A model generated the notes under the pieces. It was not told the origin of the DNA and searched no databases. It saw only the letters and a list, made by a program, of their open reading frames with translations. A DNA stretch of 64,000 bases from a virus, in the IMG/VR virus record IMGVR_UViG_3300023296_001674. The stretch is one strand, 5' to 3'. Both the position numbers and the translations under genes were made by a program. Each line of letters begins with the position of its first letter. Within the stretch, counting starts at the first letter, position 1. This document shows positions 1 to 14,713 of this stretch, piece by piece.

Positions 1-1
1 T

Positions 2-214
2 GTTATTGGGTATGGTCGAATGATGCAACTAGCAGAACAACTGTGGCGTAAAAAACTTGAAGAAGATGATATGGGGGGTGGCGAGTTTGTATCTGGACCA
101 TGCAAAGCATTGACTGTCCCATGTGGATGTAAATCAGGATGTGATTGGTGCGAGGGTGCTGAATGGTTAACTAAAAAAGTTAAAGATATCAAAAATGAAA
201 TGACGAGGGTTTAA
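2..214 (+). CDS. Hypothetical phage protein, Cys-rich C-terminus (probably 5'-truncated by window edge)
   Basis: Frame is open from position 2 (VIGYGRMMQLAEQLW...); ends in a CGCxxxCDWC motif; stop abuts next ATG at 215. Confidence 0.6.
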   Translation, partial: VIGYGRMMQLAEQLWRKKLEEDDMGGGEFVSGPCKALTVPCGCKSGCDWCEGAEWLTKKVKDIKNEMTRV

Positions 215-481
215 ATGACTAAAAATACTGAAATTCGTGCGGTAATAGATGAACGTTATCTATTCGAGTTACAAAAAAAATTAGACATACCAAATATAAC
301 CAATTTGGTTAAAGTGGCATTTACTATATTAGATTGGGCTGCGGGTGAAGCAATAAATGGACGAAAAATCATGTCTGCCGATATTGATGGCTATGATGCT
401 AAAATATTGAAAATTCGTGAACTTGACGAAATTAATAACACATACGATTCTACTGAAAAACCAAGAAATGACGTTCCATGA
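215..481 (+). CDS. Small hypothetical protein, possibly ribbon-helix-helix-like
   Basis: 88 aa, tightly packed between neighbours; strand-helix-helix pattern judged by eye only. Confidence 0.55.
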   Translation: MTKNTEIRAVIDERYLFELQKKLDIPNITNLVKVAFTILDWAAGEAINGRKIMSADIDGYDAKILKIRELDEINNTYDSTEKPRNDVP

Positions 482-651
482 ATTTTTCACGGTTGTGTTC
501 AGAATATCTTGACAGACAGCCCACACAAAACCAAAAAACAGATAAATTAGACCAATACTTTCGAAATCATCCTATTAAATTTTGCTGTGGTATTATTGCT
601 CTTTTGGCAATAGAAACGTTTTGCTTGTTTTATTTTGGAGGTGTGGTATAA
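478..651 (+). CDS. Small membrane protein, 57 aa (not in ORF track)
   Basis: ATGA overlap with upstream stop; MNFSRLCSEYLDRQ...FCCGIIALLAIETFCLFYFGGVV* with hydrophobic C-terminal segment. Confidence 0.5.
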   Translation: MNFSRLCSEYLDRQPTQNQKTDKLDQYFRNHPIKFCCGIIALLAIETFCLFYFGGVV

Positions 652-652
652 T
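644..652 (+). promoter_or_regulatory. Extended -10 sigma70-type promoter upstream of LysRS
   Basis: TGG-TATAAT at 644-652, TTGTTT at 625-630. Confidence 0.4.
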
Positions 653-684
653 ACACTAACTTATAACTGTAGAAAGTAAATAAA

Positions 685-2364
685 ATGGAAAACCTAAATG
701 ATTTAAAGTCGTGGCCTTTTGTTGAGGCGCGGCGTCTTGTAGAGCATACACAAGATAAGGAAGTGGTTGTTTTTTCCACTGGATATGGTCCGTCTGGTCC
801 GCCACACATTGGAACCTTTGGTGAAGTTGCACGAACTGTAATGGTTATGAATGCATTTCGACAATTATCCGATAAGCCAATGCGTCTTATTGTATTTTCA
901 GATGATATGGACGCTTTGCGTGCCATTCCAGAAAATGTACCCAATCCAGATAACATGCTTGATGATTTTATCGGCATTCCACTGTCTTGGATTCCTGATC
1001 CATATGAAACACATGATAGTTATTCTGCACATAATAATGCAGCACTTTGTGATTTTTTAGATTTACACGGTTATGATTATGAATTTATAATGTCATCGGA
1101 TTGCTATGAAGGTGGTGTATTTAATGAGACATTGCGATTATTTGCGTCACGAGTTGATGAGATCAGCAACATTATTACGCATGATTATGGTATCAATGGC
1201 GGAAATCGTAAGGACACTTATTGTCCATTTCTTCCAATTAACACAATCGAGGGAACAGTTTTCGAGTTGGATGAATGGGAAATTATTGAGGTTGAAAATA
1301 TGTCAATTGGTTCTTATGGAAATGGCGAGATTGCACCGTCGCCATTTCTTGCATTGCGATATACGAATGCAAGCGGTGGGGTAGGAATGTGCAATATTGA
1401 TAACGGCAAGGTTAAGCTGCAATGGAAGGCAGATTGGCCTATGCGATGGATTGCTCTAGGCATTGATTATGAAATGCATGGCAAGGATTTAATTGGGTCT
1501 GCGCAAGTTGGACAACGTATTTGCAAGTTGCTTGGTAAGAAGGCACCGCTTAACTATATGTATGAACTATTTTTAGATGAAGATGGTGAAAAGATTTCTA
1601 AGTCTAAGGGAAATGGATTGTCATTGACCGATTGGATGAGCTATAGCACCCCTGCGTCTGTGGCATATTATATGTTTCAGAACCCACGCAAGTCGCGTAA
1701 GTTGCACTTTGGTGTTATTCCGCAAATGACAGACGACTATTTGAAGATGTTGGATAAGTATATCCAAGAGCCAAGCATGGATAATCCAGTTTGGCATATC
1801 CATAATGGCGATGTTCCTACGGTTGGTTCACCAGTAATGTTCAGCATGATTCTAAATTTGGTCAGCATTACTGATACCCAAGACCCATATGTATTGATTG
1901 AGTTCATTCGGAACTATGCGCATGGCGCTTCGTTCAAGAATCCAATTCTTCGTGATTTGATCAATGGTGCATTGAACTATTACACAACCGAAGTTCTTCC
2001 TAAGAAGACATATCGTGCTCCAACTGAAATGGAGCGTGTCGCACTTATTTCTTTACATGGGTCATTGCGTATGGTTCAAGCGCAACATAATGCTATGCTT
2101 GAATTCATGAATACAAATATGGTAAAGATGGATGCCATCAATGAAGCAGGTGGCGAGAAGGCTGTATTGGAAGAAGCAATCACTTCGGTAACATATGAAG
2201 TAGGCAAGGTTCATTTCGGCGAAGAAAAGGATTCATTGCGAAAGTATTTCAAGAGTGTATATGAAATAATCATGGGTCAATCAAGTGGACCTAGATTGCC
2301 AGTATTCATTGTGATGTTGGGCATTGATGAATTTTTGAGAATTTTAAAGGAAAAGATTCAATAA
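685..2364 (+). CDS. lysS: Class I lysyl-tRNA synthetase, alphaproteobacterial type
   Basis: WPFVEAR, TGYGPSGPPHIGTFGEVART (HIGH-like), KLQWKADWPMRW, GKDL, EKISKSKGNG (KMSKS-like), C-terminal GQSSGPRL. Confidence 0.95.
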   Translation: MENLNDLKSWPFVEARRLVEHTQDKEVVVFSTGYGPSGPPHIGTFGEVARTVMVMNAFRQLSDKPMRLIVFSDDMDALRAIPENVPNPDNMLDDFIGIPLSWIPDPYETHDSYSAHNNAALCDFLDLHGYDYEFIMSSDCYEGGVFNETLRLFASRVDEISNIITHDYGINGGNRKDTYCPFLPINTIEGTVFELDEWEIIEVENMSIGSYGNGEIAPSPFLALRYTNASGGVGMCNIDNGKVKLQWKADWPMRWIALGIDYEMHGKDLIGSAQVGQRICKLLGKKAPLNYMYELFLDEDGEKISKSKGNGLSLTDWMSYSTPASVAYYMFQNPRKSRKLHFGVIPQMTDDYLKMLDKYIQEPSMDNPVWHIHNGDVPTVGSPVMFSMILNLVSITDTQDPYVLIEFIRNYAHGASFKNPILRDLINGALNYYTTEVLPKKTYRAPTEMERVALISLHGSLRMVQAQHNAMLEFMNTNMVKMDAINEAGGEKAVLEEAITSVTYEVGKVHFGEEKDSLRKYFKSVYEIIMGQSSGPRLPVFIVMLGIDEFLRILKEKIQ

Positions 2365-2365
2365 A

Positions 2366-2821
2366 ATGGAAATATTACAATATTTAATAACACGGTGTAA
2401 TATGGTTGGAAGTCGGGATATATGCCCCGAAACTGCAACCGACAACACCGATCATGATTATTTGATGTTGGCTAATCCGATTGGCGCATTTTTTGTTAGA
2501 ATTGTATTATATTTGAATAGATATAAAAGACGTCATGGCGGTATAACATATTTCAATCCTATACCTGTCATGACGCAAACTGCTGGATTTCAAGTGTGGA
2601 AAAGTATTAAAAATAATATAACAGTAGATGTTTTATTGACTACCGATAAAGGGTTTTATGATAAATTCATGGAAGCACACAATGAAGCAAAACGTTTGAA
2701 AATATTAGACAAAGCAGAACGATTGGTATTGTTTCAGAAAATAATATATGACCACGTCATAACAGTAGAAGATATGCAAAAATATTTAGATGCAAAAATA
2801 CAAAAACGAAATAATAACTGA
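2366..2821 (+). CDS. Small Pol-beta-family nucleotidyltransferase-like protein
   Basis: VGSR...TDHDYL (GS + DxD) N-terminal signature; 1 bp downstream of lysS stop. Confidence 0.5.
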   Translation: MEILQYLITRCNMVGSRDICPETATDNTDHDYLMLANPIGAFFVRIVLYLNRYKRRHGGITYFNPIPVMTQTAGFQVWKSIKNNITVDVLLTTDKGFYDKFMEAHNEAKRLKILDKAERLVLFQKIIYDHVITVEDMQKYLDAKIQKRNNN

Positions 2822-2830
2822 CGTTTTATA

Positions 2831-2860
2831 TTGCCTTTACTTGGATGGTTGAAGTATAAT
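2831..2860 (+). promoter_or_regulatory. Sigma70-like promoter
   Basis: TTGCCT-N18-TATAAT upstream of 2887. Confidence 0.45.
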
Positions 2861-2886
2861 ACAAAATCATTAATTAGAGAAATATA

Positions 2887-3537
2887 ATGGCAAAAACAGA
2901 GTTAAGACGAAAACATCCATATTTTGGAAAGTTTAAATTCAAAATAAATGTATATAATAAAGATTGGGTTAAAGATTATAAATTGGCATATCCTACTTTT
3001 TTAACTGATATTACAGATATAGAAAAAGAACAATACATAAAAGTAAAAGATTATTTAACTAAATATTGGAAAGTCGAAAAAGATTTTAGATGGAATGATA
3101 ATTGGAATGTGTATTTAAGAGATGCTGATGTATATGATCATGTTCTATCAAGATTTCCGACGTTTTTATCAAAAGTTATTAGACCAGCACCAGGTTATGA
3201 GGATTTAGAAGGAAGGGGGGCGCTTAATGAACATATATTATGGTATGGAAAATTTTCATATAAAATATCATTGAGAAATGTCGATAGCACAACAAATCAT
3301 TTATATAAAAAATGGTGTATGGAAAATTTAGAAAGCGATATAAAATACTCAACCGGTTATAGTGATACAAGTTTTTATTTTATGAATTCATTTGACGCGA
3401 TGGCATTTAAATTAAGATTTGGTGATTATGTTAAAGATACGTTTATTGCCGATAAAGACGAAGCTGCTATACAATTAAGAAATCGAATGGATCAAGCTAT
3501 TCAAGAATATAACAACTACATGGAAGGTGAATCATGA
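2887..3537 (+). CDS. Hypothetical phage protein
   Basis: 216 aa; C-terminal [16 protein letters not shown] motif; ATGA overlap with prs. Confidence 0.7.
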
Positions 3538-4496
3538 CAAAACACAATAAAAATGAAATAATTTTAATATCTGGAAATAGCAACAGACCACTATCCGAAG
3601 AAATATCGGATATACTTGATATCCCATTATCAAAAGTTGAAATATCTTCATTTTCGGATGAAGAAACTAAAATAGAAATAAGTGACAATGTGCGTGGTGA
3701 AGATGTATATGTTATACAACCAACATCACAACCGGCGAACCAAAACCTAATGGAACTACTAATCACCATAGATGCCCTTAAGCGTTCATCTGCGCGGCGT
3801 ATAACGGCTGTAATACCATATTATGGATATGCACGCCAAGATGCAAAACCAGCCCCCAGAACACCAATAACGGCAAAATTGGTAGCCGATTTGATTACTA
3901 CTGCTGGTGCTGACAGAGTTCTAACGATGGATTTTCACTCACGCCAAGCACAAGGGTTTTTTAATATTCCAACAGATAACCTTTTCGCACAACCATTTTT
4001 CGTCACGGACATTAAAAAACAATTCAAAAAATTAGATAATGTTATTATCGTATCACCAGATGTTGGTGGCGTGGTCAGAGCAAGAGCGCTTGCTAAGAAA
4101 ATAAATGCCGATCTTGCCATTATCGACAAGCGTCGTGAAAAAGCAAACGTTAGTGAAGTTATGAATATCATTGGCGATATAGACGGTCATGATTGTATCA
4201 TTATTGACGATATGGTAGATACCGCAGGAACATTATGCAATGCTGCTGATGCGTTGATAGAAAAGGGCGCTAAATCAGTTCACGCATATGCAACACATGG
4301 CGTATTGAGTGGACCGGCAACTGAAAGACTTAACGCATCAGAATCATTATCATCTTTAACTATCACAAATAGCGTACAATATCCATACAATGGCGAAGCA
4401 TCCGATAAAGTTAGAATAGTATCCATTGCTCCATTGCTTGCAAGGGCGATAAGTAGAATAGCCAAAGAATCTTCAGTTAGTGAGTTATTTGAATAA
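3534..4496 (+). CDS. prs: Ribose-phosphate pyrophosphokinase
   Basis: [55 protein letters not shown]. Confidence 0.96.
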
Positions 4497-4509
4497 AAAG
4501 GACTAAATT

Positions 4510-5562
4510 ATGAAACAATTATTAATAAGTATGTTTATAATTTTTTTGACGATAGGAACAGCAAACGCGGATTATATATTTGTTGTCCCACAAAAACCCG
4601 GTGCAGGGACGTCGCAGTGGGCACAAATAGTAGCCAAAGAATTAGAAAAATATTTAGGTGAAAAAATAAAAATAAAACATATTCCTGGTGCTCGTGATCG
4701 TGCTGGATTTAAAAAATTTCACGATACATTAAGGTTTGATGATAAGACAGTTATGGTATCGCATGGCGGTAACGCAATTAGTTATCTAACTGAACCAGTT
4801 GGATACGATTATAAAGAATATGATTCTATTGCAATCATGAATTTTAATATCGCGGTAGCGCATCGTTCAGATTTGGATTGGCGGGGTAATGATAAAGTGT
4901 CGTTTGCTGCTGGTTCGGGTATGGTTCCAGAGGCACTTGCTATAGCGATGCTATTATGTGGCGCAGATGCACCCGCGTGTTGGAATGACCGTGTGATATG
5001 GGTTCGCGGTATGTCGGGTTCCGAACGTCGGTTGGCATTTCGACGTGGTGAAATTTCAGGAACAAGAGAGAATGTTGCTGCTTATAAAAAACATGTAGTC
5101 CCCATTGTAAAATCTGGTGATGCAAAGCATTGGTTCAATCATGGTATGTTGAATCCTGCTACGGGTGAATTTGGTGCAGATACCAATCTTTCTTTTCCGC
5201 ACATGGAAGCATTGTATGAAGAACTATGGGGTGAAAAACCATCTGGTGGTTTTTATGATGCGTATAAGTTAGCCAAGGCTTGGAGAGATAGTGTTCAAAA
5301 AGCGTTGTGGGTTAATAAAGGAAATCCTAATCGTGATATATTAGTGCAAGCAGTTAACGATATGTTGAATGATCCTGCATCTATGGCGAACCTTCATAAA
5401 AAAATGGGTTCTTATCCATGGAGAGTTGGTGATGCAGGGAATGATTTTATGGACGTTTTATACAACATGATTTCAAGCGACGCACTTAAAACATTAGTCG
5501 ATTTTGAAAAAGATGTATTAAGGTTGGATGCTGTGTTTAATGAGAAACGTGTAGAGAAATAA
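4510..5562 (+). CDS. Divergent TctC/Bug-family tripartite tricarboxylate transporter substrate-binding protein
   Basis: Signal peptide ending ANA; FVVPQKPGAGTSQWA and HIPGA match the Bug-family N-terminus; adjacent to TctA. Confidence 0.7.
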   Translation: MKQLLISMFIIFLTIGTANADYIFVVPQKPGAGTSQWAQIVAKELEKYLGEKIKIKHIPGARDRAGFKKFHDTLRFDDKTVMVSHGGNAISYLTEPVGYDYKEYDSIAIMNFNIAVAHRSDLDWRGNDKVSFAAGSGMVPEALAIAMLLCGADAPACWNDRVIWVRGMSGSERRLAFRRGEISGTRENVAAYKKHVVPIVKSGDAKHWFNHGMLNPATGEFGADTNLSFPHMEALYEELWGEKPSGGFYDAYKLAKAWRDSVQKALWVNKGNPNRDILVQAVNDMLNDPASMANLHKKMGSYPWRVGDAGNDFMDVLYNMISSDALKTLVDFEKDVLRLDAVFNEKRVEK

Positions 5563-5573
5563 TATCATACGTA

Positions 5574-7013
5574 TTATGAATATTCTAACCGATTTTTATT
5601 CTTGATGCCTATATACAAAATAACTATTGCCATAATTGCAATACCTATAAACATCGGTCTACCAAGAAGCATATCCAAAGTATATAACGACGACATTTGA
5701 TAACTTAAATTTACTATTTTATCGGATAATATAAAACCTATTAACAATGATGGTCGACTAAAATTAAACTTTTTAGCGAGTAACCCAACCACCGAAAAAC
5801 CACATAACATAATGATATCTTCCCATCCACCAGTATACTGTAATGTTGCCCACATAATAATAATTATAAGAAATGGAAAATAATATTTATATGGGACATA
5901 TGCAATATAAGTTATATATTTCACTGCCCACAAACAAATCAATCCTGTGATTAATGTTCCTAAAATGAATCCTAAACTCATCATTCCAAAAAACATCGAA
6001 TCTGCTGCTAGAGCCAATGTTCCCATTTCAAAATTCAAATACATAAACAACGCCATAAGTATCGCAGCGAATGGCGCACCGGGAATTCCAAATAAAACAG
6101 TCGGAATAAATGATGACGCTTTTTGTGCATTATTTGCACCCTCGCATCCGATCACGCCTTTGATATTTCCATCACCAAATTTTTCATTGGGGTTACTAGC
6201 TACTGCTTGACCATATGCTAACCAATCCGCAACCGCGCCACCCAAACCCGGAAGAATGCCAATAAATGAACCAATGATTCCACCTTTGGCACCCAATTTC
6301 CATTCCTTGAAAGCAATTTTTATGCCATCAATTCTTTGTTGTGTGTGATCAATTTTGTTGTCTTTAATAGCGGTATATTTTGACTTCAGACCAGCAAGCA
6401 GTTCTGGTATTGCAAATAAACCTGCTACTACCGGAATTATTTGTATTCCATCCTCTAAATACGCCCAACCAAACGTAAATAATGGCGATGCATTGGCATC
6501 CAATCCTATAACTCCAAACCACACTCCAATGGATAACGCAATCAATGATCTGAGCCAATACTTAGATGAAATAAAACTAACAGTAAAAAATGCTAAAATT
6601 GTAAATGCCCATAGTTCTGGAATACCTAAAATTAAAATTATTTTTGCATAATATGGCATCAATAGGAACGCCATACAGCCCCATACAAGCCCGTTTATAG
6701 TGCTGGTAACGATTGCTGCCGATAATGCATAAGTAGCCTTCCCTTGGCGTGCTAATGGAAATCCATCCACCATTGTAGCGGCGGCAGAGTTTGCCCCAGG
6801 TATTCCCAATAAAACAGACGTGAAGGTATCACCAATTGTAGATGATGCCACAACCGCGACGCAAAAAAGAACACCAAGATATGGATTTGCTGCGAATATA
6901 TGTATAAACGAAAAAACTGCAACCAAGCCTGTTGTTGCGCCAACAGACGGAATAATACCAATAACCAATCCATAGGCTATACCCATTAACAATGTAATAA
7001 TTATTTCAATCAT
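5574..7013 (-). CDS. TctA-family tripartite tricarboxylate transporter permease (start revised to ATG 7013)
   Basis: Polytopic; SVLLGIPG, TMVDGFPLARQG, GILPGLGG, EGANNA, FGIPG. Confidence 0.9.
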   Translation of the reverse strand: MIEIIITLLMGIAYGLVIGIIPSVGATTGLVAVFSFIHIFAANPYLGVLFCVAVVASSTIGDTFTSVLLGIPGANSAAATMVDGFPLARQGKATYALSAAIVTSTINGLVWGCMAFLLMPYYAKIILILGIPELWAFTILAFFTVSFISSKYWLRSLIALSIGVWFGVIGLDANASPLFTFGWAYLEDGIQIIPVVAGLFAIPELLAGLKSKYTAIKDNKIDHTQQRIDGIKIAFKEWKLGAKGGIIGSFIGILPGLGGAVADWLAYGQAVASNPNEKFGDGNIKGVIGCEGANNAQKASSFIPTVLFGIPGAPFAAILMALFMYLNFEMGTLALAADSMFFGMMSLGFILGTLITGLICLWAVKYITYIAYVPYKYYFPFLIIIIMWATLQYTGGWEDIIMLCGFSVVGLLAKKFNFSRPSLLIGFILSDKIVNLSYQMSSLYTLDMLLGRPMFIGIAIMAIVILYIGIKNKNRLEYS

Positions 7014-7045
7014 ATATTTTCCAATAATAAATAAATCTATAGATT

Positions 7046-7053
7046 TATTTATA
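7046..7053 (-). promoter_or_regulatory. T4-type late promoter TATAAATA upstream of TctA gene
   Basis: Forward tatttata, ~33 nt upstream of ATG. Confidence 0.45.
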
Positions 7054-7087
7054 TTATACAAAAAATAAAAAATAATAGGCTGCAAAC

Positions 7088-7855
7088 ATGATTAAAAACC
7101 GAAAAATTTACAATAACTTAGTCGAAAAAATAACTGAATATTTCGGAACCAAATGGTTAAACGAAAACAATATCACCATGACGCATACCACCAAATTCAA
7201 TAAAGATTTAAATTTTGATATATTAAATGAAGTAGCAATAACATCATATGTGGAAGAGACATTTAATATAGTATTGCCGCATAACCAAAACAAATGGTTT
7301 GAAACGATGAATGACATGGTTGATTATATAAGTGATATCATAATCACGCGACACTTTGAAGACGTATGGCAACCAAATATAATACATTTTCAGCACAGTG
7401 GCGATAATTTGATAGAAACGATCAATGATGATGCGCCAAATAAAGTCCTCGATGTTGGATGTGGGACCAATTACTTCAAAGGAAAAATACATAATCTTTT
7501 GGGCATTGATCCAATTCGAACTGAAGCCGATATTACTACAACCATATTAGATTATGAAACAACAGAAACATATGATGTGATATTAATACTTGGCAGTATA
7601 AATTTCGGTTCAGAAGAGTATATACTGCAACAATTGAAGAAAGTGATTTCTCTTTTATCCGACGATGGAAAAATATATGCACGGGTTAATCCCGGCATAG
7701 AAGATTCAGAAAGCCCATGGATGGATTTTTTCGAATGGAATGAAGCATTGATTGCCAAATATGCAAATGATTTCGATTTGACTATATCTACTGATATACA
7801 AAAAGATTATAACGGAAGATTGATGTTTGTGTATAGTAAGAAAAAAATACAATGA
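7088..7855 (+). CDS. Degenerate acyl-carrier-protein-like domain fused to class I SAM methyltransferase
   Basis: DLNFDILNEVAITSYVEETFNIVLP...FETMNDMVDYI resembles ACP; VLDVGCG, GIDP, YDVILILGSINFG methyltransferase motifs. Confidence 0.7.
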   Translation: MIKNRKIYNNLVEKITEYFGTKWLNENNITMTHTTKFNKDLNFDILNEVAITSYVEETFNIVLPHNQNKWFETMNDMVDYISDIIITRHFEDVWQPNIIHFQHSGDNLIETINDDAPNKVLDVGCGTNYFKGKIHNLLGIDPIRTEADITTTILDYETTETYDVILILGSINFGSEEYILQQLKKVISLLSDDGKIYARVNPGIEDSESPWMDFFEWNEALIAKYANDFDLTISTDIQKDYNGRLMFVYSKKKIQ

Positions 7856-8445
7856 AAAATTGGATATTTTTTACTGGAGTTCCCGGATCAAGATGGAGTG
7901 GTGTAGCAAAGACTTTATGCGAAGCACCAATTGTTAATAATTCAGACCGCAACGAAACTAGAACTTATAATGATATGCACCAAGGAAATTATTTTGGGCC
8001 GAATATGGAGCATGGAAAATTATTTGAACAACTGAATAAATTGCCATCATCTATTATCAATGCAGAATTAGAATCCCCATTCGAAGAGAAAAATGACACA
8101 CAACTACGATTTTTAAAAAGTCATACATTTGCTTATCATTTGGATTTTATAAAAACACAATACCCAACCAGTAAAATAATGATGGTATATCGCGATGACG
8201 AAACGGCATTGAAATGGTGGTTGGACGCTGGTGGTTTTAATATAACCTATCCAAAATATGATTGGTACAAAGATGAAAAAACGATGTTTGAACGAATAAA
8301 ATTAGAAAACAATAATATATTAACGTTTTGTAAAAAACATAATACAGAGTTGGTTCCATTCACTGATGTGTGGATAAAACAAAATTTCGATTGGGATATG
8401 GAAGTAGATACTTATTTCGACGACATAACGGTAGCAATCATATAA
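7852..8445 (+). CDS. Sulfotransferase-fold / P-loop-like protein
   Basis: IFFTGVPGSRWSG at N-terminus, LKSH, IMMVYR; ATGA overlap. Confidence 0.5.
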   Translation: MKNWIFFTGVPGSRWSGVAKTLCEAPIVNNSDRNETRTYNDMHQGNYFGPNMEHGKLFEQLNKLPSSIINAELESPFEEKNDTQLRFLKSHTFAYHLDFIKTQYPTSKIMMVYRDDETALKWWLDAGGFNITYPKYDWYKDEKTMFERIKLENNNILTFCKKHNTELVPFTDVWIKQNFDWDMEVDTYFDDITVAII

Positions 8446-8448
8446 CGC

Positions 8449-8476
8449 TTGACATTTCTAACACTTATGCTAATAT
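8449..8476 (+). promoter_or_regulatory. Sigma70-like promoter upstream of RNA ligase
   Basis: TTGACA-N16-TAATAT with a TG before the -10. Confidence 0.4.
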
Positions 8477-8511
8477 AACACAAATATTAATAGGGTATAA
8501 GGATTAAGACG

Positions 8512-9735
8512 ATGTTTTACAAATTTCCAATAATTGAACACGTGGATCAGGTGCGCGAAGCAATCAAGGGTCGCACCGAATTTATCGTCGCTGAACGCGA
8601 ATGGGGTTTTGTTGCCAATTATTTGGTCAATTTGATCGATTCATTTCCGTATCCAGACACCAAAGATGAAAAACTCAATGAAATGTATAAAATACGACGC
8701 GAATGCCGTGGTATCAAATTTGACTTGAACGGATTGCCATTAGCACGTCCATTCCATAAGTTTCACAATCTTGGCGAACGTCCAGAAACTGCTGCTGATC
8801 GGGTTGATTTCTCTCGTTCATTTATCACTCTAGATAAATTGGATGGGTCAATGATTCACCCAATCATAATTGATGATAAAGTTATGTTATGTACCAAGAT
8901 GGGTCTTACCGATGTTGCTACCCCAGTTCAGGTATATGCCGAGCGCGGTTTATCATTCGTTAATGATAAAAAGGCAAAGACTTGGTATGTCGACTTTATG
9001 TATGATTTAGCAAAGAGTGGAATGACTCCAATATTTGAATGGTGCTCACGTCAACAACGCATCGTTATTGACTATGGCGATAAAGACCATTTGGTATTGA
9101 CTGCTGTTCGTGAAACCATTAGCGGCAAGTATAAATCATATGATCAAATGGTTGCATTGGCTGAAGCATATAAAATTCCGGTTGTTGATCATTGGGAAGG
9201 GACTTTTGAAGGAATTCAAGAGTTCGTTGAAAAAGTTCAGGAAAAGGAAGGCGAAGAAGGATGTATTATCCGATTTGATAATGGACATATGCTCAAGATC
9301 AAAAATCCTTGGTATTTGCAATTGCATAAAACCAAAGAACTTCTTCAGTTCGAAAAAGATGTTTGGGCGTTAGTTCTTGATGAAAAGCAGGACGATGCAA
9401 AAGCATTTATGGAACAGGAAGATAAGGATCGCATCGATGCATTCGCTGATGATTTATATGGCGCACTCGATGCTATAGCAGAACGTCTTAAATGGGAAGT
9501 GATTGCATGGGTAGATAACCATGGCGACAGTCAAAAGAAGTTTGCTGTTGAGTTCATTAACGGAAAAGATAGTGTGTTTGATCATCATGAAAAAACATTG
9601 CTATATAAAATCAAACTCGATATAGACAATGCACGAACTTTTGTGCACGACTATGTTCGTAACAATGTTAGCACTAGCACGAAAGTAGAAAGCATTCGTG
9701 GATTTGTTAACGACATCAATTGGGAGGATTACTAA
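8512..9735 (+). CDS. rnlA: T4 Rnl1-family RNA ligase
   Basis: RECRGIKF, RPFHKFHNLGE, motif I KLDGS, FEW, EGCII, KIKNPWYLQLH. Confidence 0.92.
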   Translation: MFYKFPIIEHVDQVREAIKGRTEFIVAEREWGFVANYLVNLIDSFPYPDTKDEKLNEMYKIRRECRGIKFDLNGLPLARPFHKFHNLGERPETAADRVDFSRSFITLDKLDGSMIHPIIIDDKVMLCTKMGLTDVATPVQVYAERGLSFVNDKKAKTWYVDFMYDLAKSGMTPIFEWCSRQQRIVIDYGDKDHLVLTAVRETISGKYKSYDQMVALAEAYKIPVVDHWEGTFEGIQEFVEKVQEKEGEEGCIIRFDNGHMLKIKNPWYLQLHKTKELLQFEKDVWALVLDEKQDDAKAFMEQEDKDRIDAFADDLYGALDAIAERLKWEVIAWVDNHGDSQKKFAVEFINGKDSVFDHHEKTLLYKIKLDIDNARTFVHDYVRNNVSTSTKVESIRGFVNDINWEDY

Positions 9736-10085
9736 TGAGTAATTCTCCCTTATGTCCATCAATCAAACATATAATTCTTCCAGACATTGAACATAATGAT
9801 TGGTTCATGACGCATCAATTTAAAAAAGACATCGAGGACAGTGAAGAAAATCGAAAAAAAATCTTTAATAATAACAATCCATGCTCAGAAGTAATGTTGG
9901 TAAAATCAAAAAATGAACATTGCCTTTGCTGCCAAGAACACGTTGGTGCCGAAGATGCAGATGTTATTACCACTCAATTAAAAAATTGTGAAAAGCAATG
10001 CACGTGGTGTGGTGATGATTTTGATATACCCGACGGGGAACTTGAATATATATTAGAAGAGGAAAACAACGATGGACGATTTTAA
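9735..10085 (+). CDS. Hypothetical protein with Cys/His metal-binding module (start revised)
   Basis: TAATG overlap with ligase stop; CLCCQEH...CEKQCTWC. Confidence 0.6.
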   Translation: MSNSPLCPSIKHIILPDIEHNDWFMTHQFKKDIEDSEENRKKIFNNNNPCSEVMLVKSKNEHCLCCQEHVGAEDADVITTQLKNCEKQCTWCGDDFDIPDGELEYILEEENNDGRF

Positions 10086-10203
10086 AGATCACGAATATTG
10101 TGGATGTTGCCAAGTGCATGTTGGTGCCGAAGATGCATTGGTTATCATTAAACAACTTAAAAATTGTGAAAAACAATGCACTTGGTGTGGCGATGATTTC
10201 AAT
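9914..10203 (+). repeat. ~110 bp imperfect direct repeat (about 9914-10025 and 10092-10203, offset 178 bp)
   Basis: Both copies encode CxCCQxHVGAEDAxVIxxQLKNCEKQCTWCGDDF. Confidence 0.9.
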
Positions 10204-10878
10204 CTTAATGTGACTGATGCTGCCACTATTGTAGAAAGTTACGAGACTACACCCAAAACAACACTCGAATTATTACGTGATATAATACACAAAAAAAACA
10301 AAGACACGGTTTTTACATCCACTTATGGAGCGATGCAAACAATGTATAGCCTCGACTCTAATTTAAATCAAAAACAAACACAAACTAGGGCATACTCAAA
10401 AGAAGACACCCCCGAATGGAAAGCCGCACGAAAAGAAGCAATATTAAACACGTTCGGTGTGGATACCGATAAAGAAACGTTTGACCCAGGATATGCAGAT
10501 AAAAATGGCGATCCACACGATAGAATGTTTGATGGCGACCCATATTATCAAGTAGATAGAAATATGTTGCCGCATCGTATGTTGAGAATTGTATCAGATA
10601 ATCCGGGTTGTATAACAAATCATTTGATGAAAAAATCATACACATCAAGACCACAACGCAAAAAACGATTAAATCATTCATGTATTGCGAGATTGGCTGC
10701 ATCAAAATTAATCAAGTTTACTAGTGATTTTATGTGTTTTTATTCGACATCAAATCCATCATGCGCTAGTATGTATTTGGGTAAAATACCAAGATTTAAA
10801 CGAAAATTCACAATAACCCCAAAGGGTTCTGAATTTTTAAAAAAATTAGACACTGACAAAAAAAGGATGTATGTATGA
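10072..10878 (+). CDS. Hypothetical protein: N-terminal Cys module, basic C-terminal region possibly winged-helix
   Basis: Second repeat copy; LRIVSDNPG...FTITPKGSEFL is wHTH-like. Confidence 0.65.
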   Translation: MDDFKDHEYCGCCQVHVGAEDALVIIKQLKNCEKQCTWCGDDFNLNVTDAATIVESYETTPKTTLELLRDIIHKKNKDTVFTSTYGAMQTMYSLDSNLNQKQTQTRAYSKEDTPEWKAARKEAILNTFGVDTDKETFDPGYADKNGDPHDRMFDGDPYYQVDRNMLPHRMLRIVSDNPGCITNHLMKKSYTSRPQRKKRLNHSCIARLAASKLIKFTSDFMCFYSTSNPSCASMYLGKIPRFKRKFTITPKGSEFLKKLDTDKKRMYV

Positions 10879-11249
10879 TTGATGCAATAAAGAAATTAAA
10901 AATATCATGGGACGCCGCAAAAGAAGAAGTGAGTTTATATAAAAACGAAAGCAACGATATACATATTGCCATTAATGCAATAGATGCCGATATAGCAAAA
11001 TTGATGCGCGAATTCACCAAATATTCCATAACTGATACATGGGACGGTGACGCTATCAAATCCATTTCAACAAACATACGTGTATTAACAGAACGAAAAA
11101 CTATATTATATGGAGTATATAAAATATCACGCGCAAAATACAATGCCGCATGGCCCAAAGTAGTGAAAATAGAAACCAACATCAAACGCCAACAAGAACG
11201 ATATTGGTTAGACCTTGATTTGTCTATATTACCAATGTGGGAACATTAA
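10875..11249 (+). CDS. Hypothetical helical/coiled-coil protein
   Basis: 124 aa, ATGA overlap. Confidence 0.6.
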   Translation: MIDAIKKLKISWDAAKEEVSLYKNESNDIHIAINAIDADIAKLMREFTKYSITDTWDGDAIKSISTNIRVLTERKTILYGVYKISRAKYNAAWPKVVKIETNIKRQQERYWLDLDLSILPMWEH

Positions 11250-11253
11250 AGTC

Positions 11254-11294
11254 TTGACATAATATGGTTAATGATATAAAATACAATATAAATA
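11254..11294 (+). promoter_or_regulatory. Tandem early (sigma70) and late-type promoter upstream of Pnkp gene
   Basis: TTGACA-N17-TAAAAT (11254-11282) and TATAAATA (11287-11294). Confidence 0.55.
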
Positions 11295-11313
11295 TTATGA
11301 AAGGTTTAGTAAC

Positions 11314-12543
11314 ATGTTAAAAATACCCCTACACGCATTAATAGTAATGGTCGGACCATCCGGCGCAGGAAAGACGGATATCGCTATTAACGCGTTCGAC
11401 GATCACGAAATTGTATCACTTGATAACATTCGAGAAGAACTTACTGGCGATGTGAACAACTATCACCACGAAGACATAGTGAATGAAGAGTTTTATCGAC
11501 GCATAAAACTCAAACTATCAATTGGTGAACGTGTGGTTGCTGATGCGTCACACGTAAAGAAAAAAGAACGTCTATTAACCACAATGATTGGTATGGATAT
11601 GCATGTTCCAATTTATTATATTGTGGTAGATCGTCCACTTGATGAGAAACTAACAAGCAATCAAATAGGTGATGGAACTTTAATTAATAAAGAAGACGCG
11701 ACATTTAAAAGCAATGAAAAAGACATTGTTAAAGGTGATAGTATGGCTACGGTAATTGATTCACGTGAGGTTGAGGTTCCATGCAATATCATTCGCAGTT
11801 TCAACTACGAGGGAATTATCGACGATATTAAAATTCGTGGATTTAATAATATCACAGCAATTGGTGATGTTCATGGTATGACTGAAGATTTTGTTCAGCA
11901 CATAAATGCGGCACGTGCGGTTAACAATTTTATCGTACAGTTAGGTGATATCGTAGATTATGGACCAGACTCGGTTGGATGTGTTGATTTGATGTATCGG
12001 TTGGTGGTTAATGGTGATGCTATTTTCATCATCGGAAATCATGAAGCAAAATTGGAAAAATATATCAAGCAAGCAAAAGCTGGTGATATCCGTATCAAAC
12101 TTAAAGGTGGTATCGTCAAGACTGTTGAACAGCTTGATAAATTAAGTGATTCAAAGCGTGCGTTGTTTGAGTTAAAGTTTGCGACACTTATGAACTATGC
12201 ACGTCATCACGTAAGAATAGGCAATAATGTTTTTGTACATGCATCATCAACTAAAATGATGAGGGATGTGATTACTAATAGGTTACATGGTTTTAACTCA
12301 AACCGTGCCATTTATGGGGAAATAGATCAAAATAATTCCACAGATGAAAATGGATTTCCGAATCGACAATATAATTGGGTTGATGAAATACCTGAAGGTC
12401 ATACATCATATGTCGGTCATGCCTATCTCGACTTACATAATCCAATAACCAAAATTGGTAAGCTTGGCGGGAAAGCAATATTCGTCGATACCGGCTCTGG
12501 AAAAGAAGGAACTCTAAGTTCAGTAGATATCCCATTAAAATAA
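11314..12543 (+). CDS. Polynucleotide kinase-phosphatase (P-loop kinase + calcineurin-like metallophosphoesterase; no ligase domain)
   Basis: VMVGPSGAGKT, VSLDNIREEL; IGDVHG, GDIVDYGPDS, GNHE, FVHA, VGH, DTGSG. Confidence 0.88.
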   Translation: MLKIPLHALIVMVGPSGAGKTDIAINAFDDHEIVSLDNIREELTGDVNNYHHEDIVNEEFYRRIKLKLSIGERVVADASHVKKKERLLTTMIGMDMHVPIYYIVVDRPLDEKLTSNQIGDGTLINKEDATFKSNEKDIVKGDSMATVIDSREVEVPCNIIRSFNYEGIIDDIKIRGFNNITAIGDVHGMTEDFVQHINAARAVNNFIVQLGDIVDYGPDSVGCVDLMYRLVVNGDAIFIIGNHEAKLEKYIKQAKAGDIRIKLKGGIVKTVEQLDKLSDSKRALFELKFATLMNYARHHVRIGNNVFVHASSTKMMRDVITNRLHGFNSNRAIYGEIDQNNSTDENGFPNRQYNWVDEIPEGHTSYVGHAYLDLHNPITKIGKLGGKAIFVDTGSGKEGTLSSVDIPLK

Positions 12544-12569
12544 AAATTATTGGGATATCTATTTTTCAC

Positions 12570-12600
12570 TTGACAAAACATTATATTCATTGTATAAATA
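12570..12600 (+). promoter_or_regulatory. Promoter: TTGACA-N17-TATAAATA (sigma70 -10 coincides with late motif)
   Basis: TTGACA 12570-12575, TATAAATA 12593-12600. Confidence 0.55.
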
Positions 12601-12663
12601 ATATCATATAAGCCATATTTTACAGGTGTGGCAAACACCCCAATAGGAAATATGGAGATTATC

Positions 12664-13260
12664 ATGAGTGGTGGAACATTAGTTTTGAATGCAGACGCAC
12701 AACCAGTAAGTGTTGTCCCATTGTCTACAGTTAATTGGCAAGATGCAATCAGAATCATCTACCTAGATCGGGCAACCGTTTTGGGTGAATACAATCGTTG
12801 GGTTGTTCGCAGCCCATCTGTGCAGATGCGCATGCCTTCTGTTATCATGTTGAAAAACTATCAGCAGCATAACGGCAAAGTCGAGTTCTCGCGATACAAT
12901 ATTATTTTGCGAGATAACTACAAATGTTTGTATTGTGGTGAAAAGTTCGAGTTCAATCAGTTAACCTACGACCACGTTATTCCTAGACGTGATGGTGGAA
13001 AAACTGAATGGAAAAATATCGTATCAGCGTGTGCTCCTTGTAATCAGGAAAAAGCGCATCATCATAAGATGAAGCCGAAACGACAGCCACACATTCCAAC
13101 ATATTGGGAATTGGCGGGTATTATAAAAACAATGCCAATAACTGTTCCACACCAAACGTGGAAAGAGTTTATGATTTGGGATTCGGAAATTATTGTTGAT
13201 GATTCTCTTCAAACAGAAAACGTCGATGAAGATAACATATTGGCAAGTAAAATAATTTAG
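12664..13260 (+). CDS. HNH endonuclease (McrA/HNH_5-like; start revised)
   Basis: LVLNAD, PSVIML, FSRYNIILRDNYKCLYCG, TYDHVIPRRDGG, WKNIVSACAPCN; GGAG 6 nt upstream of ATG. Confidence 0.9.
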   Translation: MSGGTLVLNADAQPVSVVPLSTVNWQDAIRIIYLDRATVLGEYNRWVVRSPSVQMRMPSVIMLKNYQQHNGKVEFSRYNIILRDNYKCLYCGEKFEFNQLTYDHVIPRRDGGKTEWKNIVSACAPCNQEKAHHHKMKPKRQPHIPTYWELAGIIKTMPITVPHQTWKEFMIWDSEIIVDDSLQTENVDEDNILASKII

Positions 13261-13291
13261 AAATAATTATTTTAATATTGACAATTTAACC

Positions 13292-13328
13292 AAAATAGCA
13301 GTAGAATGCAAGTTCTATTGCTATTTTT
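13292..13328 (+). terminator. Intrinsic terminator-like hairpin
   Basis: AAAATAGCAGTAGAA-tgcaag-TTCTATTGCTATTTTT. Confidence 0.6.
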
Positions 13329-13390
13329 CGTCGTATAATAGGATTATGTTCATAAAACAATGCATATAAACCTATTAAGTCCGTATTTAA

Positions 13391-13396
13391 TAAATA
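13391..13396 (+). promoter_or_regulatory. Late-type promoter TAAATA
   Basis: aTAAATA ~35 nt upstream of ATG 13431, which has an AAGGA SD. Confidence 0.4.
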
Positions 13397-13430
13397 GTAA
13401 TATCCGGTTTTTATTAAAAGGAAAACAAAT

Positions 13431-13784
13431 ATGACTGAAGAAACAAACACTGCACAAGAACCAATGGCAAGACCTGAATCTATGAATGTAGGAGATTTGC
13501 AATTACTAACTAAATTAGTTGATGCTGGCTCCGAACGTGGAGCGTGGAAAGGTGAAGAATTGTCAGTAATTGGTGCGGTAAGAACTAAAATGATTGCGAA
13601 TATACAATACGCAACACCTACACCAATTGCTCCCACTGAAGAGACTACAACTACAACAAAAACAATTGAGCGCGATGAAAACGATTTGATTAAAACAATC
13701 ACTGAAACAAAAACGCCGTCGAAACAAACTAAAGCAAAAGCTAAACCAAAACGCAAGCGTGCTGCTAAACCAACTGCTGCGTAA
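13431..13784 (+). CDS. Hypothetical phage protein with basic C-terminal tail
   Basis: DLxxxxxxVDxxxxRGAWKGEELxxIG core motif typical of large myophage proteins; KAKAKPKRKRAAK tail. Confidence 0.75.
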   Translation: MTEETNTAQEPMARPESMNVGDLQLLTKLVDAGSERGAWKGEELSVIGAVRTKMIANIQYATPTPIAPTEETTTTTKTIERDENDLIKTITETKTPSKQTKAKAKPKRKRAAKPTAA

Positions 13785-13804
13785 ATAGACAAGAGGTATA
13801 ACAA

Positions 13805-14713
13805 ATGTCAATACACAATCAAAATACATCTACTGCTACGCGCCACGTTGGAACATGTGGTGACAAACGCGTCGCTGTGATAATACAAGACCCTAATGCT
13901 ACACACGAAGTTCATGTTGTAGATACTGATTCATTACCTGATGTATATCATCAAAATTTGATGGATATGTTAATGCGTGCTGAAGCACAATCATCTAAAT
14001 GGTTCGGCGAATATATGCACCGTCAAATGTTATTTGATGGCACCAATGCGTTACGAACTTTCTATGAAAAAAATTGGATACTACAAGTTCCAGTAACGAG
14101 TGTTTACTTAACACCAAGACCTAATACAAGTGTTTCACTTGCTGAAGAATTAGGTATCATGGTTAATCACCAACAACCACAACAACAAGTTAATCAACCA
14201 CAACAATTTAACCCGTTGGCAAATAATCAACAACCGCAACCGCAACCACAACCGCAGCAAATTCAAGAATCCAATTATGACAATATAATTGCTCAAGAAC
14301 AAGCCAAATTGAATCAGGTTAATAATCCAAATATGCCGCCAGCGTCTGATGCATATAACCAACACGTTCAGAACTTTCAAGGCGATGCTAATGAACAAAA
14401 TAGATTGGTAGCCGCCAACCTATTACAAGAAGCGAAAATGTTAGAGATGGATGCCGCTAATAAACGTGCACAAGCAGTTCAATACGATCCTTCTACTGCT
14501 CAACAAGCAGCAACATTTACGCCACAACCGCAACCGCAACCAACTAACACGTTTAATCCATTAACTGAAACTACTAAGGTTCCAGTTGTTGATAGTGTTC
14601 CTGCACAGTCTTTTTCAGATTCAGTAACAGGTAAAACGTATTCTTCTGCTAGCGCACTTAAAGGTGCAATAACCAGAAGAGAGAATGCAGCAAAGAAAAC
14701 CGGAAATGGATAA
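13805..14713 (+). CDS. Hypothetical phage protein with Q/P-rich linker
   Basis: RHVG...VVDTDSLPDVYHQNLM N-domain; QPQPQP tracts; GAGG SD. Confidence 0.8.
   Translation: MSIHNQNTSTATRHVGTCGDKRVAVIIQDPNATHEVHVVDTDSLPDVYHQNLMDMLMRAEAQSSKWFGEYMHRQMLFDGTNALRTFYEKNWILQVPVTSVYLTPRPNTSVSLAEELGIMVNHQQPQQQVNQPQQFNPLANNQQPQPQPQPQQIQESNYDNIIAQEQAKLNQVNNPNMPPASDAYNQHVQNFQGDANEQNRLVAANLLQEAKMLEMDAANKRAQAVQYDPSTAQQAATFTPQPQPQPTNTFNPLTETTKVPVVDSVPAQSFSDSVTGKTYSSASALKGAITRRENAAKKTGNG

Follow-up and report, generated by a model that had tools for sequence, protein, structure and literature searches.

A class I lysyl-tRNA synthetase of a phage clade encoded beside a predicted tRNA heal-and-seal pair in megaphage DNA

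Introduction

In phage T4, Pnkp (PseT) and the RNA ligase Rnl1 (gp63) mend tRNA-Lys cut by the anti-phage nuclease PrrC. Counterparts of both enzymes are encoded in a 64,000-nucleotide stretch of viral DNA from IMG/VR virus record IMGVR_UViG_3300023296_001674, here called the window, whose positions 685 to 12,543 carry a full-length class I lysyl-tRNA synthetase (LysRS), a small nucleotidyltransferase, a Rnl1-type RNA ligase and a polynucleotide kinase–phosphatase (likewise termed Pnkp). From these four genes, the initial annotation had proposed a counter-defence kit that would heal, seal and recharge tRNA-Lys; all four lie where it had placed them and have strong family matches (Table 1). Like T4, the window phage combines a 5'-kinase, a 3'-phosphatase and a Rnl1-family ligase with the KxDG lysine, and it shares with T4 a Rnl2-family ligase in addition to Rnl1. 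The two differ in that the T4 phosphatase is a HAD enzyme (DxDxT), whereas that of the window is a calcineurin-type metallophosphoesterase, and in that the window Rnl1 falls below the TIGR02308 equivalog cut-off.

Other described systems resemble parts of the locus. Both domains of the window Pnkp find their best solved-structure match in Pnkp of C. thermocellum (kinase 4jst, phosphatase 4j6o), known from bacterial Pnkp/Hen1 RNA repair; the C. thermocellum protein carries a C-terminal ligase domain, whereas in the window phage the separate Rnl1 would ligate. Among defence nucleases, AriB of PARIS nicks the anticodon stem of tRNA-Lys(UUU) between positions 40 and 41, leaving 3'-OH and 5'-phosphate ends (PMC12409363). 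It also targets tRNA-Thr and tRNA-Asn, and a tRNA-Lys(UUU) variant of phage T5 escapes it (PMC11464382, PMC12409363). T5 and the window phage are alike in that the counter-measure of the former is centred on tRNA-Lys(UUU) and the latter depends heavily on AAA codons; unlike the window phage, T5 has no synthetase gene and answers with a replacement tRNA. Huge phages carry aminoacyl-tRNA synthetases, which have been proposed to charge phage tRNA variants, in a report in which RNA ligase goes unmentioned (Al-Shayeb et al. 2020; PMC7162821). The window gene shares with those cases a synthetase that is host-related yet distinct and a phage genome of >500 kb, but it differs in encoding a class I LysRS, in belonging to a phage clade of its own and in lying beside RNA ligases.

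Here, we compare this locus with its relatives. We find that it probably belongs to a neighbourhood for tRNA maintenance and NAD salvage that is conserved in Atu_ph07-like megaphages, in which an apparently ordinary heal-and-seal pair is joined by a member of a LysRS clade from phage-like contigs.

Results

The window derives from a T4-like megaphage

The window is phage DNA: among its products are virion proteins, a T4-type baseplate wedge protein (phrog_10646) and a lysozyme-bearing gp5-like hub. It lies in a metagenome contig of 570,549 bp from a T4-like megaphage (ENA ERZ27315719, k141_202852), on which its LysRS protein is found without a single difference. No deposited phage matched at the DNA level when the full length of the window was searched by megablast. 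By protein, the closest cultured relatives are Agrobacterium jumbo phage Atu_ph07 (490 kb; NC_042013) and Sinorhizobium phage Phosso (469 kb; PV764938), and the host of the window phage is probably an alphaproteobacterium. ARAGORN reported zero tRNA genes in the window. Genes were compared by identity, motifs, synteny and phylogeny, from which the enzyme activities, tRNA substrates and host named here are predicted. In what follows, L001 denotes a stretch of the source contig that includes the region upstream of the window, L005 denotes Atu_ph07, L006 and L019 denote Phosso, and other L numbers denote contexts of the LysRS clade.

Table 1 Features of the locus, with positions in the window unless L001 is given (aa, amino acids; ORF, open reading frame; E, expectation value)
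Feature	Position	Strand	Evidence or remark
Class I LysRS, 559 aa, full length	685..2364	+	PF01921 E 1e-102, profile 1-359 of 360; catalytic motifs intact
Rnl1-type ATP-dependent RNA ligase, 407 aa	8512..9735	+	PF09511 E 5e-31, 108.8 bits vs cut-off 28.3; phrog_562 E 5e-62
Polynucleotide kinase and calcineurin-type 3'-phosphatase fusion (Pnkp), 409 aa	11314..12543	+	AAA_33 and Metallophos PF00149
Rnl2-family ligase, off window	L001 8050-9060		0.9 kb upstream of LysRS; PF09414 36.5 bits vs cut-off 27
Minimal Pol-beta-fold nucleotidyltransferase, 151 aa	2366..2821	+	starts 1 nt past LysRS stop; GS...DxD motif
3' end of 156-aa Cys-rich ORF	1..214 (L001 9060-9530)	+	ORF start abuts stop of off-window Rnl2-family ligase
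216-aa ORF, conserved follower of LysRS	2887..3537	+	DAMAFKL motif of phage-only family
Ribose-phosphate diphosphokinase (PRPP synthetase)	3534..4496	+	NF002320 472 bits vs cut-off 297; Pribosyltran_N E 8e-52
Variable inserted block: 350-aa ORF, TctA (minus strand), 255-aa and 197-aa ORFs	4510..8445	.	TctA PF01970 E 3e-91
Three ORFs (116, 268, 124 aa) between Rnl1 and Pnkp	9735..11249	+	no family matches (Pfam, NCBIfam)
HNH endonuclease	12628..13260	+	PF14279 and PF01844 E 1e-14
Sigma-70-like promoter match TTGCCT-18-TATAAT	2831..2860	+	before 216-aa ORF; consensus match only
Sigma-70-like promoter match TTGACA-16-TAATAT, TG-extended	8449..8476	+	upstream of Rnl1; consensus match only
Sigma-70-like promoter match TTGACA-17-TAAAAT, 11 of 12	11254..11282	+	upstream of Pnkp; consensus match only

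Rnl1 and Pnkp as a predicted heal-and-seal pair

Sequence comparison gives good support to Rnl1 and the kinase–phosphatase as an ordinary phage heal-and-seal tRNA repair pair. Rnl1 matches the T4 Rnl1 structure 2c5u (E 5e-23) and carries the nucleotidyltransferase motifs I (KLDG, with K109) and V (KIK at 262–264). Against TIGR02308, it scores 120 bits (cut-off 242) in an alignment that extends up to profile position 329 of 373; in a comparison directed at the C-terminal tRNA-specificity domain, the alignment to T4 Rnl1 ends at T4 residue 301. Pnkp matches positions 3–402 of the 851-position bacterial Pnkp profile TIGR04075 (E 3e-30) and has the motifs GPSGAGKT at 14, GDVHG at 184, GDIVDYG at 211 and GNHE at 241. 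The protein ends at residue 409, with no match to profile positions 403–851, which represent the C-terminal adenylyltransferase/ligase domain, and no HAD family matched its phosphatase domain. Pfam scans of the ORFs at 215–14713 turned up no Hen1 family. In the predicted pathway, the phosphatase would remove 2',3'-cyclic or 3'-phosphate ends, the kinase would phosphorylate 5'-OH ends and Rnl1 would reseal tRNAs cut by host anticodon nucleases.

The two genes stay linked over considerable sequence divergence. In Atu_ph07 and Phosso, Pnkp is 41–42% and Rnl1 36–38% identical to the window protein, and the pair is kept at a spacing of 3 kb and 9 kb, respectively. Furthermore, phrog_8238, a profile of 737 positions, is matched by Pnkp in its N-terminal and by Rnl1 in its C-terminal part, from which it follows that kinase–phosphatase–ligase fusions exist in other phages. 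Repair suites of this kind were described in a survey of jumbo phages, where calcineurin-like phosphatases are the rarer option (Iyer et al.; PMC7824862).

One relative, whose LysRS is 64% identical to that of the window, has a 251-aa Pnkp homologue (L002 13210–13965, L003 15629–16156) that comprises the phosphatase only; no kinase domain was detectable in 19 kb of that relative.

A LysRS clade from phage-like contigs

LysRS aligns to positions 9–523 of the 528 in NF001968, including the C-terminal anticodon-binding part, with 587 bits, under the equivalog cut-off of 648; its score against TIGR00467 (153.8) is over the cut-off of 147.55. The catalytic motifs are HIG (HIGH type, residue 41) and KISKS (KMSKS type, residue 303), and residues H41, G43, K303, S305 and K306 are invariant in an alignment of 28 sequences. 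Among solved structures, the protein matches P. horikoshii LysRS (1irx, E 2e-41).

A tree built from the 120 best database hits places 26 tips, the window LysRS among them, in one clade (support 1.0). This clade takes in every homologue whose contig was inspected, and all 11 inspected contigs are virus-like; the clade has so far been found only in phage-like contigs. The rest of the tree is of cellular type and stands apart from the 26 tips, its named members being alphaproteobacterial enzymes with 43–45% identity. Within the clade, identity falls as low as 44%, with the catalytic motifs still intact. This pattern fits a single old acquisition of LysRS from an alphaproteobacterial-type host, followed by long upkeep in phages.

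Relatives of this LysRS were searched in viral_contigs, where none were found, and among 50,697 deposited phage records, where the sole other class I LysRS-like gene was gene 197 of Halogranum tailed virus 1 (HGTV-1). That gene resembles the window gene in being annotated 'class I lysyl tRNA synthetase', but it belongs to an archaeal virus and is truncated (~375 aa; 32% identity over 19% of the query). With no RNA ligase nearby and its gene incomplete, HGTV-1 was set aside as uninformative as an independent LysRS case.

The phage LysRS would most likely keep tRNA-Lys, from host and/or phage, charged during infection, by analogy with the role proposed for other huge-phage synthetases. It could do so to supply capacity, not defence. 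An AT-rich phage that writes lysine mostly as AAA would place a heavier load on Lys-tRNA(UUU) charging in its alphaproteobacterial host, which is presumably richer in GC. Extra synthetase from the phage would help to meet this load, and the linkage to repair genes would be incidental. We judge this reading improbable. The window has a GC content of 0.30–0.40 (~35%), the lysine codons of 22 window ORFs are 82% AAA (AAA:AAG 465:105), lysine makes up 7–11% of most early-region proteins and the LysRS is a host-type enzyme with an affinity to those of Alphaproteobacteria, all as the reading would have it; overall lysine usage in the 22 ORFs, however, is only 4.7%, and Atu_ph07 and Phosso, which infect alphaproteobacteria and presumably face a similar mismatch, do without a LysRS.

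A role outside translation appears very improbable to us. LysRS might supply Ap4A-type dinucleotides that an ApaH/PrpE-like phosphatase domain turns over, or its Lys-tRNA could donate the amino acid to a tailoring reaction. In favour of such a role, the Pnkp phosphatase domain also matches PrpE/ApaH tetraphosphatases (NF010148 E 7e-13; 2qjc), a relative retains that domain alone, and many tailoring enzymes are encoded elsewhere in the window. Against it, the match of both domains to the bacterial Pnkp profile is far stronger, no aminoacyl-transferase was found beside LysRS, and the synthetase retains a complete anticodon-binding domain.

RNA ligases near LysRS across the clade

We read ten contexts of the LysRS clade for the co-occurrence of ligases that the initial annotation had asked about in relatives. 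A RNA ligase of the Rnl2 or Rnl1 family lies within ~6 kb of LysRS in seven. The window phage and a 248-kb relative have a Rnl2-like ligase 0.9 kb upstream of LysRS; downstream, Rnl1 follows at a distance of 6 kb and Pnkp at 9 kb. L002/L003 and L004 show the same order minus the TctA block, which brings Rnl1 to 1.7 kb downstream, and in L013, Rnl1 follows at 2.4 kb. The Rnl2-like ligase is downstream of LysRS in L011 (25 bp) and L008 (1.6 kb), while L007 has a HNH–Rnl2 fusion 2.2 kb upstream together with a separate metallophosphoesterase and a PNK-like kinase. In the other three contexts, LysRS stands without a ligase within 10 kb: L009 and L010 have none near it, and L014 has a PNK-like kinase and a TilS-like PP-loop enzyme instead. 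However, five of the seven positive contexts have a common ancestral block of NAD genes, a synthetase-like core and ClpP and are therefore not independent.

The remark in the initial annotation that the genes are not contiguous is true of the window, where the PRPP synthetase and the TctA block separate LysRS from Rnl1; in relatives without that block, the LysRS–Rnl1 gap is only 1.7–2.4 kb.

L008 encodes, at 2822–8937, the large and small subunits of glutamate synthase (GOGAT), GMP synthase, SAICAR synthase and TnpB; its GOGAT and purine-synthesis genes make this context less clearly viral. Glu_synthase-domain genes also precede LysRS in L011 and L013. PP-loop enzymes of the tRNA-modification type are the direct neighbours of LysRS in L014 (PF01171, TilS-like, 12973–14566) and L013 (QueC-like, 9164–10000), and L014 additionally has a KTSC-domain ORF 6 kb upstream.

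NAD-salvage genes on the upstream side

Upstream of the window, the source contig encodes, in order, a NUDIX hydrolase, a NadE-like NAD synthase, a radical SAM enzyme and a NMNAT-like transferase, then an isochorismatase-like protein, a 303-aa class II synthetase core, ClpP and a homing endonuclease, and finally the Rnl2-family ligase, the 156-aa Cys-rich ORF and two small ORFs (88 and 57 aa), after which LysRS follows. LysRS is located between a NAD-salvage group and the RNA-repair genes. The PRPP synthetase on its downstream side is grouped with the upstream NAD-salvage genes, not with tRNA repair.

Clustering of NAD genes with RNA repair is seen in both the window phage and Atu_ph07 (L001 130–4119, window 3534–4496, L005 1–5072). 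The genes concerned encode NUDIX, NadE-like, NMNAT-like and isochorismatase-like proteins and PRPP synthetase, to which Atu_ph07 adds a nicotinate phosphoribosyltransferase; the cluster may be a NAD-replenishing counter-defence set. The class II core (L001 5304–6215, 4.0–3.1 kb upstream of the window start) is a GlyRS-like catalytic core without an anticodon-binding domain. It is 56% identical to a Phosso 'serine-tRNA synthetase', which makes it better conserved than Rnl1 or Pnkp, and it may be a tRNA-independent amino-acid ligase.

Cultured relatives keep the repair pair without LysRS

Besides the linked pair, Atu_ph07 and Phosso share with the window phage a HNH gene behind Pnkp and NAD-salvage genes nearby. 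Their tRNA sets are large (31 in Atu_ph07, 59 in Phosso), and parts of both genomes were scanned for tRNAs. Neither has a class I LysRS, though both keep Rnl1 and Pnkp, and no Rnl2-like homologue was found in either phage. Phosso has four tRNA-Lys genes yet no LysRS. Its Rnl1–Pnkp interval encodes an ATP-grasp protein, a cysteinyl-tRNA synthetase (CysRS), a peptidyl-tRNA hydrolase and a CUA-anticodon tRNA, as well as a class II synthetase-like core with 56% identity to that of the window phage. With a CysRS, a tRNA and a peptidyl-tRNA hydrolase inside it, this interval points to a neighbourhood of general tRNA maintenance that is not specific to lysine. The interval in Atu_ph07-like megaphages, thus, gathers translation genes of varying specificity.

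Phosso has two CUA-anticodon tRNAs (L006 19984–20059, record 171983–172058; L019 6732–6807, record ~446731–446806). They would read the amber stop codon, and one sits between CysRS and the class II synthetase-like core.

Against the conclusion that the locus is a general maintenance neighbourhood, two sets of observations weigh in favour of a dedicated tRNA-Lys kit, in which Pnkp and Rnl1 (and/or Rnl2) would restore tRNA-Lys after cleavage by PrrC- or PARIS-like nucleases and LysRS would recharge it, or would charge a nuclease-resistant phage tRNA-Lys. First, the ligases of the seven positive contexts are found on either side of LysRS in surroundings that are otherwise rearranged, and their closeness hints at more than passive synteny. 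Second, the AAA-rich coding of the phage suggests dependence on tRNA-Lys(UUU), which reads AAA, is the target of PrrC and AriB and is a recurrent target of nucleases (PMC11464382, PMC12409363). We nevertheless consider a dedicated kit unlikely. Atu_ph07 and Phosso maintain the repair pair without LysRS, Phosso doing so with its four tRNA-Lys genes and a CysRS in the interval; no ligase lies within 10 kb of LysRS in three members of the clade; the Pnkp kinase domain was lost in one close relative; five of the positive contexts go back to one ancestral gene block; and the small nucleotidyltransferase occurs in no relative. In addition, host LysRS should recharge a mended tRNA anyway. The closeness of LysRS and ligases probably reflects a shared tRNA-maintenance neighbourhood and is not a demonstrated lysine-specific pathway. 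Of the kit as first proposed, the heal-and-seal half holds up by homology, by Rnl1–Pnkp linkage and by phrog_8238, while the tRNA-Lys recharge half, which is argued from the neighbourhood, is weakened by the relatives without LysRS and by the CysRS of Phosso.

The Rnl2-family ligase as a candidate partner of LysRS

The ligase just upstream of the window matches phrog_548 over its full length (E 6e-51), and its KLHGTN aligns with motif I of T4 Rnl2; the match to TIGR02307 is partial and under the cut-off (E 7e-10). Ligases of the Rnl2 family adjoin LysRS, or come close to doing so, in the window phage, L002–L004, L008 and L011, to which the HNH–Rnl2 fusion of L007 can be added; Rnl2 is the ligase most often seen to abut LysRS. 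It is a long shot that the constant partner of the phage LysRS is a Rnl2-family ligase rather than Rnl1, the two forming a two-gene module against Toprim-type nicking of tRNA-Lys. Nicked duplex RNA with 3'-OH and 5'-phosphate ends is the preferred substrate type of Rnl2 enzymes, which seal it without end-healing. The nick made by AriB leaves such ends in duplex RNA, so no end-healing would be needed. In such a module, the synthetase would shield, present or immediately recharge tRNA-Lys, and PrrC-type cuts in the loop would be left to Pnkp and Rnl1.

The small nucleotidyltransferase is specific to the window phage

The initial annotation had described the ORF behind LysRS as coupled and nucleotidyltransferase-like. 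The latter part is borne out by its Pol-beta fold and its motif. The ORF starts one nucleotide past the LysRS stop; this arrangement finds no echo in relatives, as the gene was absent after LysRS in all those examined and is present only in the window phage. Its family comprises 233 representatives (E up to 0.001), in which G15, S16, D29 and D31 are invariant. The AlphaFold model (pLDDT 89) has GrpB as its best fold match (Z 8.4), and the remaining top matches are all Pol-beta nucleotidyltransferases. The nearest homologue is on a 2.2-kb contig, and the few from deposited phages belong to 44–68-kb phages, where they are annotated as hypothetical; the contexts of these homologues revealed no tie to ligases or synthetases. 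The gene is a strain-specific addition.

Two more specific identities were tried and rejected. RlaP, the RNA-ligase-associated Pol-beta nucleotidyltransferase, was dismissed since neither the 151-aa ORF nor 50 family members matched PF10127 at E 0.01. For a HEPN-MNT antitoxin or a MenT-like enzyme, only weak, non-specific matches were obtained (9xbd E 0.11; MenT1 Foldseek E 2.5e-3, TM 0.39).

Remaining genes and promoter-like sites

Homologues of the 216-aa ORF (32–48% identity) lie directly behind LysRS in L002, L004 and L013, and no Pfam, NCBIfam or PADLOC family matched it. The TctA block occurs only in the window phage and its 248-kb relative, where one of its genes is inverted; it is absent in L002, L003, L004 and L013, in which the PRPP synthetase is followed by Rnl1, and is outside the repair set. 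For the 116-, 268- and 124-aa ORFs between Rnl1 and Pnkp, tblastn detected counterparts with 27–59% identity in L002–L004; Atu_ph07 and Phosso gave no hit. Model quality is poor for the 268-aa ORF (Atlas, pLDDT 0.48), which shows a weak winged-helix likeness at the C-terminus, and for the 156-aa Cys-rich ORF (pLDDT 67, pTM 0.39). A PADLOC scan of ten proteins identified no defence-system family; a weak match of the 124-aa ORF to Cas1b (E 5e-4) was taken as chance and rejected. The HNH endonuclease, whose gene also lies behind Pnkp in L002 in addition to the two cultured phages, is likely a selfish element.

Promoter and terminator scans gave match counts not above those of shuffled controls, so operon boundaries drawn from the promoter-like sites in Table 1 are only suggestions.

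Discussion

tRNA-Lys(UUU) is repeatedly hit by anti-phage nucleases, PrrC and PARIS among them, and phages are known to respond by repairing the tRNA, as in T4, or by replacing it, as in T5. The candidate genes described here are well defined and amenable to tests in laboratory strains. The long retention of a LysRS beside RNA ligases in a phage lineage raises the possibility of a third layer, in which the charging step itself would be secured. Should the link between LysRS and the ligases be a shared neighbourhood only, the data still document a class I LysRS clade carried by phage-like contigs.

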